From sequence record MK524176.1: DNA of 64,000 bases, one strand, 5' to 3'. The DNA is from Escherichia phage PHB11. This document shows, in pieces, positions 2,642 to 46,512 of this stretch. Position 1 is the stretch's first letter. Each line of letters starts with the position of its first letter. The notes under the pieces are model-generated. The model did no database searches. It saw nothing but the letters and a program-made list of their open reading frames with translations, and had not been told where the DNA came from. Position numbers and translations under genes: made by a program.

Positions 2642-3175
2642 CTATAATTGTAGGTTGCATTCTTTACTTACCTCTTCAAGCTTAACCTCAGAGTCCTTGA
2701 GTCGTTTCTTATGAACTCTGAATCTCATTAGTGCGATGATGATACCAACTAAAGGAACAGCATACAAGTACCAAACATCATATACCTTTGTAGTAATCTG
2801 TGTAATGGTCAAATCTTGAGCTATGGAACTGATTGCTGATACTGCCAGTAATGTTGCTAAGAAAAATGCCAGTACCATTACTGTACTTAAACAACCTCTG
2901 GCATGGTGTTCATGCTTAATACACTTATTCTTTTCGTCAACAACCCTGTTGTAGTCGTTTGTAAAGTCTCTGTAGAAAGCTTTCAAGTATTCTTTATTGT
3001 AGCCTTCAAAGCAACCTGTACCGTACCAATAATCACCGCCGAAATGTGCTATGATACCAGTTTCTCCGTTTGGTTTAGTTACTCTCAAAGATGTGTGATG
3101 ACGAGTATCTTGATAGTCTATTTTGTATCTTTCTTCGTAAATCATTTTCCAACCCCTCTCAATCGTTTGTTCCAC
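2642..3175 (-). CDS. Hypothetical membrane protein
   Basis: 177-aa ORF with hydrophobic segments (LAFFLATLLAVSAISSIA, AVPLVGIIIAL). Confidence 0.5.
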   Translation of the reverse strand: MEQTIERGWKMIYEERYKIDYQDTRHHTSLRVTKPNGETGIIAHFGGDYWYGTGCFEGYNKEYLKAFYRDFTNDYNRVVDEKNKCIKHEHHARGCLSTVMVLAFFLATLLAVSAISSIAQDLTITQITTKVYDVWYLYAVPLVGIIIALMRFRVHKKRLKDSEVKLEEVSKECNLQL

Positions 3176-3360
3176 TCAAGGTCAACAAGTCTTTGTAGGA
3201 CTTTCCCTCTAGGTGTTACACCTTTTAAATCCGCATCGTAACAATGGTAAAAGTCACCTTCAGCGTGTTTACCATAGCATTTCCTGATATTCTGACTTCT
3301 ACGATACTGCTCTAGTAGGGATAGTCTGTAGTAATCTTCAACTGTAGTTAGTTTTTTCAT
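3142..3360 (-). CDS. Hypothetical protein
   Basis: 72-aa ORF overlapping its neighbour. Confidence 0.4.
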   Translation of the reverse strand: MKKLTTVEDYYRLSLLEQYRRSQNIRKCYGKHAEGDFYHCYDADLKGVTPRGKVLQRLVDLEWNKRLRGVGK

Positions 3361-3385
3361 TCTTTCACCACGAATCCTTTTAAGA

Positions 3386-3443: not shown

Positions 3444-4025
3444 TCAAGAGTATTTTTTAGGCAGTAATGCACTACGCTTGTTGCTCTCTTCGCTCAATAG
3501 TGCGATAAACTCATCACCTTTCCCTTTCCACGGGCTGAATGTAGGGATGTGCTCTCTGATAGCCTCAATCACTGTTTTCAGGGCGTTGTTCTTTAACCAC
3601 CAATCAGACACTGCCGAAGCTACAATATAGTAAGCACCGTCATCTGTGAAGATTGGCTCAGAGATACATGGTGAAATCATAGTGGTAATGATAGAGCCAT
3701 TATTCATGTAGTATGTTCTTTTTTCAACCTTGTCAAGAAGTTTATGAAGGTCTGCAAAGAGACTTACCACCTCTTTATGGTCAATATCCTTTTCAAGATT
3801 TGCCCTGTATTTCAATAGTGCAGCATCAACCTCTTTATCATTGAATTTGAAGTATTGGACTTCTTCATTCACACATACACTGATATTGTTGGTGTTTATC
3901 GTCAATTTGCACAGTTTGACTGGAGAGTTGATGTTGGTCTGGAAAAGTGCTACACAGCCTTCTACATTCCCGAAATGTTTGACTAGTGTAACTTCTGGTT
4001 GAATGTGCTCATGTTCTTCGGACAT
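3444..4025 (-). CDS. Hypothetical protein
   Basis: 193-aa ORF. Confidence 0.5.
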   Translation of the reverse strand: MSEEHEHIQPEVTLVKHFGNVEGCVALFQTNINSPVKLCKLTINTNNISVCVNEEVQYFKFNDKEVDAALLKYRANLEKDIDHKEVVSLFADLHKLLDKVEKRTYYMNNGSIITTMISPCISEPIFTDDGAYYIVASAVSDWWLKNNALKTVIEAIREHIPTFSPWKGKGDEFIALLSEESNKRSALLPKKYS

Positions 4026-42670: not shown

Positions 42671-43000
42671 TTAATCTGCCAGCCTTAAATTAAAATTAAC
42701 ACCAAATTTTTCACATACTTCCAACATAAACTCAAGAGAGACATTACCAGTGAGATTAATTATGTTGGATACACGAGCCTGAGAGATACCACAAATTTTA
42801 GCAACTTGCTCTTGAGAAAGACCTCTGGATTTAATCTCTCTCTTAAAACGATGTGCAACGAAATCTCTCATTTCGTCTACATCCATTGGACAAATATAAC
42901 TCTCCATTTCAGCCTCTCTGTCAGCCTCCCAACCATCTTGTGGAGCATAAGGGTCAAAAACCTCATTCATCTTTCTTCTTCCGTTTACGTGAAGTGTCAA
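42671..43000 (-). CDS. HTH DNA-binding protein (putative transcription regulator)
   Basis: Helix-turn-helix-like LSQEQVAKICGISQARVSNIIN near the C-terminus. Confidence 0.5.
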   Translation of the reverse strand: MTLHVNGRRKMNEVFDPYAPQDGWEADREAEMESYICPMDVDEMRDFVAHRFKREIKSRGLSQEQVAKICGISQARVSNIINLTGNVSLEFMLEVCEKFGVNFNLRLAD

Positions 43001-43176: not shown

Positions 43177-43560
43177 TCAAATACCTGTGCAGCTTCTGTT
43201 TTCTAAGAAATACTCAACACCATACATAGCTTTTTGCATCAAATCTTCTTTAAACTGAATACGATGATTAAGCATAGTCTGTACATCAATATCATCATGG
43301 TGCTTTTCTTTAATATTTGCAGATTGCAGGAAATACTCTCCAAGAACACGATACTGATAGTCAGTTACCTTGTCAGTCATCTCTGTTAAAGACTCTTCAG
43401 AGATTGGTTTAAGTAACTCACCATTAGCCAAAGCAACACCTTTAACAATCTGACAAGTGTCTTCTGGAACACCTGATAAGTCTACATTTGGAAGTTCTGT
43501 TGCATTGACTGGTAAATTCATTGCCATAACCATTGCAGCGGCTAATAAAACCTTTTTCAT
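43177..43560 (-). CDS. Secreted/periplasmic protein (signal peptide)
   Basis: N-terminal MKKVLLAAAMVMAMNLPVNA signal-peptide-like segment; 127 aa. Confidence 0.55.
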   Translation of the reverse strand: MKKVLLAAAMVMAMNLPVNATELPNVDLSGVPEDTCQIVKGVALANGELLKPISEESLTEMTDKVTDYQYRVLGEYFLQSANIKEKHHDDIDVQTMLNHRIQFKEDLMQKAMYGVEYFLENRSCTGI

Positions 43561-43663
43561 AATAACCTCAAAGCTATATTAAATTTTGTATTACATTGAG
43601 TATAAAAATAGGCTATAACACCTGACTTGTCAACAGATTTTATAGCTTATTTGGCAGATTTTT

Positions 43664-43925
43664 TATAAGGCTACTGCCATCCTTCCATACATTACCTTAC
43701 CTTACCTCACCTGACCTGACCTGACCCTACCTAACATTACCGTGCCACACCTCACTTAAAAACCCTCTTAAAAGACTCTTAAGTGATGTAAGTCTCATTT
43801 TAATGTAGCTGAGACTAACTACCCATACCTGACCGAACATTACTAGGCCTTACCAGACACTACAGAACAGGACAGCACCGCACCTTATTAAAAGACCCTG
43901 TTTAAAGACCTTTTAAAAAGGAGCC
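43664..43925. repeat. Mosaic repeat region R1 (G-depleted ACC-rich pentamer tract, two conserved hairpins, AAAAG direct repeats)
   Basis: Shares 13-45-nt blocks with 45064..45350; pentamer tract 43692-43735; hairpins CACTTAA..TTAAGTG (43753-43785) and AGTCTCA..TGAGACT (43791-43816). Confidence 0.7.
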
Positions 43926-43948
43926 TCCGAAGAGGCTACCTAGTCAAC

Positions 43949-44389
43949 TTAGAAAGGTTTTCTACGTTGCTTGTTAATGTTAGCTTTCATAGCAGCTAAG
44001 TGGTTTTGCTGTTCAATCAGTCGTGAGCGTTCTTGATGGCTAAGTTCCATAGTGTTCACATTCTCAATAGCTTGAGTGGCTTGCTTTAAAGCTCGACCAA
44101 TCTTACCAGACATTTTACGTTTTGCAATAGTTGCTTGATGTTTAGGTTCAACCACACGATAACCAACACCCATTGAAGCAACCAGATAAATCTTCTCTTC
44201 TTTAAGAAGCTTCTCAATAAACTTCTCAAGTCGGTTTAGACGTGTAAGTGCATAAGCCTTCATTTCATCTTCGTACTTAACAATGTCGCCTTGATAAGTT
44301 GGCTTCACAATACCTAAGAAGGTGTCCATCTCAGAATGTGATACAGTGTCACCGTAACTAAACTTTGCTGCTAATGCTTTTGTATTCAT
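43949..44389 (-). CDS. Hypothetical protein (cassette gene 2)
   Basis: 146-aa ORF; C-terminal basic region. Confidence 0.55.
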   Translation of the reverse strand: MNTKALAAKFSYGDTVSHSEMDTFLGIVKPTYQGDIVKYEDEMKAYALTRLNRLEKFIEKLLKEEKIYLVASMGVGYRVVEPKHQATIAKRKMSGKIGRALKQATQAIENVNTMELSHQERSRLIEQQNHLAAMKANINKQRRKPF

Positions 44390-44391
44390 AA

Positions 44392-44997
<606 letters not shown>

Positions 44998-45063
44998 TTA
45001 GTTGATTGTTAAGTTGTTTGTAAAGAACCCTCAACAGAAGACTCTTTAGAAACTTGGTAGATT

Positions 45064-45350
45064 TTTAACGTGGCTACTACCATCCACCCATACCGTGCCA
45101 CACCACACCGGACTATACCATGCCCAACCCTACTACACCAGACCTTATTAAAAGACCCTCTTAAAAGACCTTTTAAAAAGGTAAGTCTCATTTTAATGTA
45201 GTTGAGACTAACTACCCATACCTTACCGCACCGGACATTACCGGACCGCACATCACCGCACCAAACCAAACATCACATTACCTGACCTCACCGCGCCTTA
45301 CCATACCTCACTTAAAAACCCCTCTTAAAGATTCTTAAGTGATGCTGGTG
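45064..45350. repeat. Mosaic repeat region R2 (same blocks as R1 in a different order)
   Basis: Blocks: GGCTACTACCATCC, ACCGTGCCACACC, hairpin AGTCTCA..TGAGACT (45184-45209), hairpin CACTTAA..TTAAGTG (45309-45341), TTATTAAAAGACCCTCTTAAAAGACCTTTTAAAAAGG; strongly G-depleted plus strand. Confidence 0.7.
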
Positions 45351-45374
45351 AGTACCCGTTGGTTTATGCTGCTC

Positions 45375-45402
45375 AGTATACTCACCAAATTTTCTATGTC
45401 AA
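45375..45402 (-). promoter_or_regulatory. Sigma70-like promoter on the minus strand (TTGACA-16-TATACT)
   Basis: Minus-strand reading AAAAGTTGTTGACA..TATACT; would give a roughly 380-nt leader through R2 before the 44994 start. Confidence 0.45.
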
Positions 45403-45408
45403 CAACTT

Positions 45409-46512
45409 TTATTCATAATCTCGTATAACGAGGCCAACAGGGAACTGTAAAGAACCTTTACGAGTCATCTTCTGGAACTGAACCGTCAAAGGTTTCCCGA
45501 TAAACTCTTCAGGATGTTCAGCAAGATACTGTTTCTTCTCATGAGTAGTCTTCCATGAGACATCTACAAAGACGTTAGGAAGAGTCTCTACAACGAACTT
45601 GCCATGACCACGCTTATCAGTCTTTACACCAGTCACTTTAAACTCTTCAGTGTGCATCTTCTTGTGCTTAATCAAGAAGTATGAACGGTGACAACACTCA
45701 TAGAAGGAGTCTTCAGAGATTGAACGGTACATTGCACCTTCAAACTTGGCTTCAACCCACTTATCATGAGCTTCATCAAACTCTTCCCAAGAATTTACAC
45801 GACGAGACTTAACAGGAACAACTTTACAGCCGTCTCTAAAGTCATTCAATGGTGAAGTCTCAATAATATCTCTACGCTCAGGCCACGTCTTAGTACTGTC
45901 ACAGATATCATACCAGTAAAACTTGAGCAAGTGTCTGTCAGGATTGTCTTCATTTTTAATCATGGAGACGATATCTTCTAAGTCCCACCCATGAGCATAA
46001 ATCTCTCCATCAAATTCATCAACATCTTTGTGGAGCCTTAACATTGCCATAATGTCAGGTATTAGTTCAGTAGGGATTTTATAAACAGTATTCTCACGAG
46101 AATATGCTGTAAACACACTACCAATACTCAAGTGTCTTGAAATCCTACAACGTACACCATCAAGCTTCGGTTGAGCATCAGCAGGGAACTTCAGATACTT
46201 TGCATGACTAACCTTTGCAGCATCATGAGCAAGCTGTACACCTACCTTCTCAGTATTCTGTGCAGACTCTTTTGTGTAAGCATAGCCTTTGCGGTCAACT
46301 TGCTTTTTATACTTAGCAGCAACTTCAAAGAGAGCTTGCTGTTCAGCATTACGCTCATTCTTTTTACCGATGTTTTTAGGTTCTGCTGTATACTCTTCAA
46401 ACATCATCTTGCCATTTTCTTTACCGTAGGTTGTAATAACTTTGTCACCTACAGCAACGCATGACCAGACGTTAAAAGAGCCGTCTTTATTTTGTTTGTA
46501 CAGAATTGTCAT
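45409..46512 (-). CDS. ATP-dependent DNA ligase
   Basis: Motif I KLDGVRC (adenylated Lys) and motif III FDGEIY; 367 aa. Confidence 0.8.
   Translation of the reverse strand: MTILYKQNKDGSFNVWSCVAVGDKVITTYGKENGKMMFEEYTAEPKNIGKKNERNAEQQALFEVAAKYKKQVDRKGYAYTKESAQNTEKVGVQLAHDAAKVSHAKYLKFPADAQPKLDGVRCRISRHLSIGSVFTAYSRENTVYKIPTELIPDIMAMLRLHKDVDEFDGEIYAHGWDLEDIVSMIKNEDNPDRHLLKFYWYDICDSTKTWPERRDIIETSPLNDFRDGCKVVPVKSRRVNSWEEFDEAHDKWVEAKFEGAMYRSISEDSFYECCHRSYFLIKHKKMHTEEFKVTGVKTDKRGHGKFVVETLPNVFVDVSWKTTHEKKQYLAEHPEEFIGKPLTVQFQKMTRKGSLQFPVGLVIRDYE

Follow-up and report, generated by a model that had tools for sequence, protein, structure and literature searches.

Viral Interference Programmable Repeat (VIPR) is a CRISPR-like system of RNA-guided DNA silencing, described by one group in two bioRxiv preprints of 2026 (10.64898/2026.04.26.720920 and 10.64898/2026.04.26.720927). 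The guide RNA of the system, the vrRNA, is reported to have 9-16 YNNGG repeats with a conserved GGY and a hypervariable NN, followed by an invariant pseudoknotted tail, and the protein Vipr is a minimal RAMP protein (RRM core, G-loop and thumb) with vap as the accessory gene (both preprints). One Vipr protomer per repeat sequesters the GGY, the NN reads double-stranded DNA skipping every third base, and the outcome is transcriptional silencing (both preprints). In phage SUSP1 the counterpart of the region studied here gives small RNAs of ~100 nt, which are recovered together with Vipr on purification and guide the binding of DNA (10.64898/2026.04.26.720920). What the SUSP1 clade targets in nature is mostly a satellite phage found in the genomes of Escherichia coli, and for most targets the skipped base is reported to be at the wobble position; the methods call the unit 'the vrRNA-vipr operon'. 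Below we report the analysis of positions 45003-45402 in a 64,000-nt stretch of Escherichia phage PHB11 (record MK524176.1; hereafter the window), which is a Felixounavirus sequence. The stretch is very probably the upstream guide-RNA array of a Felixounavirus type II VIPR, and not a regulatory leader of an mRNA. That RNAs of ~100 nt are expressed, form ribonucleoproteins, bind DNA and silence is taken from the SUSP1 preprints, and the anatomy, conservation, covariation, near-identity to the SUSP1 locus and matches under a one-base skip (skip-1) come from the present analysis.

The product of the gene that follows the array (Table 1) is found by a sequence search of the PDB to match entry 36pp, 'SUSP1 Vipr protein', with E=1.7e-127 and, by phmmer, E=1.5e-127, and 190 of its 195 residues are identical to SUSP1 Vipr (97%), end to end. 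Among them, H17, K33, E71, M72, R138, C173, D177, W178 and R179, which are reported to contact G1, G2, Y3 or the skipped target base (10.64898/2026.04.26.720927), are all present in the PHB11 protein. Because the identity runs end to end, the real start of vipr is ATG 44979, preceded by a ribosome-binding site GGAG at 44992-44989, and not GTG 44994, the start given by the open reading frame (ORF) caller for a 200-aa ORF. Counted from the predicted transcription start, ~390 nt of non-coding sequence therefore precede the vipr ATG; the first-pass annotation had placed a leader of ~380 nt before a start codon at 44994, of which the long non-coding stretch stands and the start codon does not. The second gene is equally close to its SUSP1 counterpart, with 145 of 147 positions identical, stop included (99%). 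No Pfam family is found for vipr or vap, and PHROGs gives both as 'unknown function' only. In all 18 close relatives of the 200-aa ORF the gene is surrounded by the same phased tracts, each side having 1-3 modules, and GG-pentamer tracts also flank Vipr homologues of 37-40% identity in unrelated viral contigs (IMG/VR). In these distant loci tracts precede, separate and follow the two genes, and GGC replaces GGT in some of them. This shows that the repeat travels with the protein and not with the adjoining replication genes.

The long GGU-rich tracts, already noticed in the first-pass annotation, turn out to be strictly phased GGYNN pentamers and not merely GGU-rich sequence, with 18 units in the first tract (R2a) and 11 in the second (R2b). 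A scan of the whole 64 kb for in-phase ACC/GGT tracts of period 5 finds only the upstream array and a sister intergenic region at 43660-43884. The sister array (43884-43653, with modules R1a and R1b) sits just downstream of the two-gene vipr-vap operon, and the upstream array region is thus not unique in the window. From the window and 20 related phage loci we collected 65 unique phage tracts with 749 units. On the whole, position 3 is a pyrimidine in 100% of the units and position 1 is G in 82% and otherwise T or A, while the two NN positions are hypervariable, carrying only 0.08-0.11 bit of information each. The G at position 2 was imposed by the tract caller and is therefore no evidence. 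The phased GGYNN tracts are far beyond chance. The unit counts of R2b, R1a and R1b (11, 12 and 13) are all within the published range of 9-16. R2b is the positional counterpart of SUSP1 vrRNA1, sharing its tail and downstream sequence with a different NN code, and the R1b guide is identical in two loci (L007 and L012).

Every tract is closed by a 34-nt tail. In the tail alignment, stem 1 pairs columns 3-8 with columns 15-20, and stem 2 pairs the loop of stem 1 (columns 9-14) with columns 29-34, forming an H-type pseudoknot. Five tail types interchange AGTCTC/GAGACT, GGTAG/CTACC, GGCAG/CTGCC, AATCG/CGATT and GTCG/CGAC, and compensatory changes are present in 10 of the 12 pseudoknot pairs. The proportion of cells paired in the pseudoknot is 91.7%, against 31-41% with the partners slid, and the observed covariation score is reached by none of 500 shuffles. 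The R2b tail is identical to the tail of SUSP1 vrRNA1. Actually, the two conserved hairpins seen earlier in this stretch are real, but each is one half of such a pseudoknot (45217-45184 and 45089-45056), and more hairpins precede the tracts, which are headed by an A/T-rich box with hairpins. The box TCTTTTAAGAGGGTCTTTTAA is confined to VIPR arrays, with 3 sites versus 0.03 expected; the box TCTTTTAAGAGGGTYTTTTAA was considered as a general phage promoter motif and rejected, being present only at arrays. The Rfam 15 covariance models give one chance-level match only on the locus (E=0.81, inside the vap gene), and the vrRNAs are not yet in Rfam.

Upstream of R2a, the near-consensus minus-strand promoter of the first-pass annotation is upheld: it agrees with the sigma-70 consensus at 11 of 12 positions and is the best among four promoter-like sites in 43400-45600. 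Its 28-mer lies upstream of the array in all 21 Felixounavirus loci, identical in 19 of them and with one mismatch in the remaining two, at a distance of 265-554 nt from the ATG that tracks the module number. Judged by its sequence and position, the promoter at 45402-45375 would drive the upstream vrRNA array and probably the whole vrRNA-vipr-vap unit. It is likewise borne out that transcription runs in the direction given, that the stretch is non-coding, that a structured RNA arises from it and that it is placed in the 5' part of the vipr-vap unit. A 16-bp leader hairpin (~45342-45308, -15.2 kcal/mol) abuts the first GGY unit, and the leader including this hairpin is presumably cut away in vrRNA maturation, given the ~100-nt size of the mature vrRNA; the spacer between R2a and R2b may take part in processing or termination. 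Besides, an inverted repeat GGTGAGTA ... TACTCACC (45346-45385, minus strand) encloses both the -10 hexamer and the predicted start of transcription; it is kept together with the promoter in related phages and could serve as an operator for a regulator.

Compared with the SUSP1 locus (L018), the PHB11 locus has the same gene order of ligase, array, vipr, vap1 and array, and the promoter, the 65-nt leader, the vipr-adjacent tail and the 76 nt before the ATG are all of the same sequence. The GGYNN repeats, the tail types and the target element, an E. coli satellite with baseplate and tape-measure genes, are alike as well. The two differ in their modules, which are 1 upstream and 3 downstream in SUSP1, as also reported for it, and 2 and 2 in PHB11, in all four NN codes of PHB11, which are unlike those of SUSP1, and in R2a with its 18 units against the 9-16 reported. 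The sequence marks of type II VIPR (the SUSP1 clade), namely the vipr residues, GGYNN units, hypervariable NN, pseudoknot tail, vap operon and skip-1 targets, are all found here.

The targets of the guides were sought in E. coli. A BLAST search of the locus against complete E. coli genomes gives matches resembling vrRNAs in 148 genomes, in chromosomal DNA without annotation, and these sit in a satellite island of ~11 kb. The island has genes for a large serine recombinase, for phage baseplate and tape-measure proteins and for several small unknowns, and frequently one for an adenine methyltransferase. Overall, a member of this satellite family is found in 528 of the 5,426 complete E. coli genomes (~10%), at four or more integration sites, including wrbA, yecD/DUF72, tonB-yciI and lpxL-mdtG. 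One of the satellites (L041) encodes the exact proteins cited for the satellite targeted by SUSP1, WP_096972663 and WP_096972664. We then scanned 18 satellite loci (352 kb) with the 54 phage guides of at least 10 units, with 0, 1, 2 or 3 wildcard bases standing for GGY and a threshold of at least 85% NN match. With a one-base skip 27 of the 54 guides reach the threshold, while skips of 0, 2 and 3 give 0, 1 and 0 guides, respectively. This independently reproduces the published code and the published target element.

For the four PHB11 guides the best matches are listed in Table 1. The score of the best 11-unit window of R2a is reached by none of 150 unit-order shuffles, and the target of R2a is well supported over its 3' two-thirds, whereas that of R2b is suggestive only. 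The skipped base is the codon wobble position for R2a, R2b and R1a and codon position 2 for R1b, and the matches recur at homologous sites across several satellites. Among the first ten satellite variants no match of R2a or R2b rises above background; the matches were obtained after adding eight more variants. No self-target is found in the window for any of the four guides, except their own genes under a 3-base skip.

Table 1. Features of the PHB11 VIPR locus (positions in the window) and best skip-1 targets of its guides (positions in the satellite loci, which bear L numbers)
Feature	Position	Strand	Description
Sigma-70-type promoter	TTGACA 45402-45397, 16-nt spacer, TATACT 45380-45375	minus	11/12 consensus positions
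Transcribed leader ahead of first repeat	45308-45367	minus	same leader in SUSP1
R2a repeat tract (vrRNA)	45218-45307	minus	18 GGYNN units, four with T at position 1; NN = guide code
R2a 3' tail, H-type pseudoknot	45184-45217	minus	stem 1 GTAGTT/AACTAC, stem 2 AGTCTC/GAGACT
Inter-vrRNA spacer	45145-45183	minus	U-run after first tail, A/T palindrome, box TCTTTTAAGAGGGTCTTTTAA; hairpin -9.9 kcal/mol
R2b repeat tract (vrRNA)	45090-45144	minus	11 GGYNN units
R2b 3' tail, H-type pseudoknot	45056-45089	minus	stem 1 GTGGAT/AGCCAC, stem 2 GGTAG/CTACC
Stretch between last tail and vipr	44980-45055	minus	hairpin; nearly invariant in 21 loci
Weak promoter-like site TTTACA-18-TAAAGT	45024-44995	minus	from promoter scan
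vipr, 195-aa RAMP-like protein	44392-44979	minus	PDB 36pp match; phrog_4652, function unknown
vap1 accessory gene, 146 aa	43949-44389	minus	synteny with SUSP1; phrog_5926
R1a, downstream vrRNA	43791-43884	minus	12 units 43884-43825, pseudoknot tail 43824-43791
R1b, downstream vrRNA	43653-43751	minus	13 units 43751-43687, pseudoknot tail 43686-43653
R2a target, tape-measure gene	L043 9527-9559, also L044		21/22 over units 7-17; guide sense antisense to gene
R2b target, tape-measure gene	L045 6726-6758		18/22 (0.82); 17/22 at homologous site in L046
R1a target, satellite adenine-methyltransferase gene	L041, L042		20/24 (0.83), units 1-7 perfect; 0/300 shuffles
R1b target, ~108-aa satellite gene	L036, L030 and others		21/26 (0.81), 19/20 over units 1-10; 1/300 shuffles

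From the near-identity to SUSP1 we infer the following steps for PHB11. The conserved sigma-70 promoter would transcribe the leader, R2a, the spacer, R2b, vipr and vap1, and possibly R1a and R1b downstream. Each vrRNA would be a run of GGYNN pentamers closed by its pseudoknot tail, and the leader and spacers would have to be removed from the transcript, because the length of the mature vrRNA is about that of tract plus tail; candidate signals for this removal are the 16-bp hairpin, the U-run that follows the first tail and the box specific to the arrays. Vipr, the small RAMP protein, would then assemble with one protomer per repeat, each GGY being sequestered, and the exposed NN dinucleotides would pair with double-stranded DNA with every third target base skipped. 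The resulting Vipr-vrRNA filament on the DNA would block transcription of the target, and the satellite genes would be silenced during infection. The predicted targets in PHB11 are genes of the ~11-kb satellite, for R2a and R2b most likely its tape-measure gene.

Several results weigh against this assignment. R2a with its 18 units is outside the published range, its units 1-6 match nothing, and at full length it scores 23/36 (0.64), which equals background and is reached by 157 of 300 shuffles. The R2b match is marginal, being reached by 4 of 300 shuffles, and no perfect target for any of the four guides is found in the 18 satellite loci. Exact xNN pattern scans in IMG/VR give no match for R1b or for R2b (first 10 units), nor does the exact R2b pattern (first 10 units) in species-representative genomes. 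Two metagenome matches to R2b have the 11th unit mismatched and fall in unrelated environmental genes; both are rejected, since ~1 is expected by chance. About 18% of the units have T or A for G at position 1, so some units may bind Vipr weakly, and SUSP1 vrRNA1 apparently also opens with a TGT unit. Furthermore, the promoter activity and the RNA ends in PHB11 are read from its DNA, and with a terminator-like hairpin lying between vap and the array downstream, a single long transcript is not certain. This hairpin, AGCCTC-TTCG-GAGGCT followed by CCTTTTT (43922-43937, minus strand), stands directly after the vap stop and before the downstream array, and suggests that the latter may rely on read-through or on a start of its own.

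Since the upstream vrRNAs belong to the 5' untranslated region of the vipr-vap transcript, an autoregulatory role of the leader might conceivably be added to the guide function, though nothing in the data speaks for it. As a rather unlikely extension, Vipr assembly on the nascent 5' GGY tracts might mature the guides and feed back on vipr/vap in a TRAP-like manner, and the over-long R2a might be a fused guide of two specificities. If true, the fusion would make unit-level recombination a route to new guides.

The alternative that survives best is close to this, namely that the stretch regulates the vipr-vap mRNA in cis as its 5' leader, for example through TRAP-like attenuation, with an oligomer (possibly Vipr) bound to the triplets and controlling transcription or translation further on, alone or atop the guide function; we regard it as improbable. 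A TRAP leader has ~11 (G/U)AG triplets with 2-3-nt spacers, an overlapping antiterminator and then an intrinsic terminator, and its partner is an mtrB-like ring protein. The likeness to the trp leader of Bacillus lies in a conserved triplet, repeated with spacers of 2 nt in a 5' untranslated region and read by an oligomeric protein; the PHB11 array comes after the promoter and before vipr, a terminator scan shows no strong terminator on the way, and hairpins flank the tracts of the array. Vipr is also reported to bind these repeats (10.64898/2026.04.26.720927), which makes feedback physically plausible. However, the triplet of VIPR is GGY and not (G/U)AG, the protein is a RAMP forming a helical filament and not an 11-mer ring, the spacers carry DNA-recognition information in trans, and there is no attenuator terminator; a strict TRAP-type attenuation leader, which would need a strong terminator before the gene, is rejected. 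As to a cis leader in general, modules of the same kind are found behind the operon as well, where a leader role is impossible, the number of upstream modules varies from 1 to 3 among near-identical phages, and a hypervariable NN that matches foreign DNA under the skip rule is needless for a cis element. Neither an alternative of terminator and antiterminator (terminator scan) nor an Rfam leader family is found at the locus. The post-transcriptional or cis-acting function proposed in the first-pass annotation is thus given up in favour of trans-acting VIPR guides, to which the phased GGYNN, the hypervariable NN, the pseudoknot tails and the adjoining vipr and vap belong.

A CRISPR array is made of direct repeats of 24-48 bp alternating with unique spacers of about the same length, and cas genes are close by. 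The PHB11 locus is not of this kind: it has period 5 only, its modules of 128-163 nt are tract plus tail, and there are no cas genes. The likeness of VIPR to Class 1 CRISPR-Cas (Cas7 on crRNA) lies elsewhere. In both, a RAMP fold with G-loop and thumb polymerises along the guide RNA, the thumb turns bases out of the duplex of guide and target at regular intervals, a variable guide is capped by a conserved structured handle, and foreign DNA is targeted. VIPR differs in having no repeat-spacer array, no cas1/cas2 and no PAM, in being encoded by phages, and in silencing without cleavage; unlike the CRISPR guide, its guide is non-contiguous, 2 of 5 RNA bases reading 2 of 3 DNA bases.

Much less probable than a cis leader is a replication origin or recombination hotspot, in which a transcript G-rich on the non-template strand would form a priming R-loop or G-quadruplex, or the repeats would serve as iterons or primase sites. 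The ligase, polymerase and primase-helicase genes near the array, the strong local G/C strand asymmetry and a module copy number as variable as in a recombination-prone repeat would fit it; GG recurring every 5 nt would in principle allow two-tier quadruplexes, and G3 runs proper are seen in distant relatives. Nevertheless, what is constrained is GGY at a 5-nt phase with free NN and not G-richness, each tract carries a covarying RNA pseudoknot that an origin does not need, and in unrelated phages the tracts travel with vipr and not with replication genes. The cumulative GC skew gives no switch at the site beyond the change of gene orientation, and the SUSP1 equivalents give discrete Vipr-bound small RNAs (10.64898/2026.04.26.720920). 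A decaying or selfish simple-sequence repeat without function, with a promoter serving only the downstream genes, is hardly credible: it could claim some degenerate units (TGT or AGT) and an over-long R2a of which only part matches a target, but the phase and GGY are maintained over 749 units, the tails covary, the association persists down to 37% protein identity, and the skip-1 matches fall non-randomly within one mobile element. The TRAP-like attenuator and the R-loop/G-quadruplex origin, which had been early hypotheses, were dropped after the Vipr structure match, the covarying tails and the skip-1 targets; on the same evidence a primase-site cluster (T7-type pentamers), an antisense Rho-loading site and Shine-Dalgarno-like standby sites were dropped too.

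The system, clade, code and target are already known from the preprints of April-June 2026, because the locus belongs to the clade characterised there, and the PHB11 case adds no new principle. VIPR itself is a newly described form of RNA-guided DNA recognition, which works with one protein of ~20 kDa and a code that is non-contiguous, and it has been proposed as an ancestor of the CRISPR RAMP effectors. In the accessible parts of the preprints we do not find the conserved promoter with an inverted repeat around its -10, the copy-number variation of the arrays, the degenerate first-position units or the over-long guide of 18 units, which matches only in part; the 2+2 layout and the mis-annotation in GenBank are further new details. 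The arrays are recognisable from raw sequence through phased GGYNN and the pseudoknot tail, and for PHB11 this yields four concrete guides with testable targets in a satellite of ~10% of E. coli genomes.

The VIPR locus matches 275 phage records, nearly all of Felixounavirus and relatives (Felix O1, wV8, SUSP1/2), and the closest is phage vB_EfeM_pEP20 with 99%. Its neighbours by Pfam and PHROGs are the ligase, a helix-turn-helix (HTH) regulator and unknowns; the DNA ligase gene ends at 45409 (minus strand), and the array promoter comes directly after it. The labels over the array region in GenBank vary, being 'DR_4' repeats in wV8, a terminator and promoter in ASO1B, and hypothetical proteins elsewhere. 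Hypothetical proteins are annotated across the arrays in several deposited genomes, for example OR863361, PP886229 and MK482688-90, and in the window an 86-aa ORF spanning the repeat tracts (45009-45269, minus strand) is almost certainly spurious. The genome papers of Felix O1, wV8 and UAB_Phi87 do not mention the repeats.

The satellite family is highly mosaic and often riddled with insertion sequence (IS) elements. Of its 18 loci (L027-L036 and L039-L046), 9 bear one vrRNA-like tract of their own, with 12-13 GGYNN units and a pseudoknot tail of phage type, such as L028 14996-15093 and L041 14667-14770. No homologue of vipr or vap is found in the 18 loci (tblastn, E<=1), and these 'orphan' guides would therefore need the Vipr of a helper phage. 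Their best skip-1 matches are in other satellite loci or flanks (21/24 at L043 17047-17082 and 23/26 at L040 17484-17522), and not in the PHB11 window.

In the distant VIPR loci from IMG/VR contigs (L022-L026, Vipr 37-40% identical), the order is tract, vipr, tract(s), vap and tract, and adjacent tracts are separated by hairpins; no Rfam match is found at these loci. Among them, L023 has GGC units (e.g. 3058-3376 and 3822-4000), and L026 has GGT/GGG units including true G3 runs (e.g. 2356-2484, 3024-3309 and 3720-3848). The locus L021 also has tracts, but ~1.2 kb downstream.

Back in the window, a second promoter of the same type (ATAAAATCTGTTGACA-17-TATTTT, 43605-43633, minus strand) lies between the downstream array and the gene at 43560-43177, and the motif TGTTGACA is also present at seven other sites, several of which resemble further promoters. 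About 0.6 kb downstream of the VIPR locus there is a small regulator gene of HTH_3/Cro-C1 type (42671-43000, minus strand), which is a candidate regulator of the early-type promoters here.

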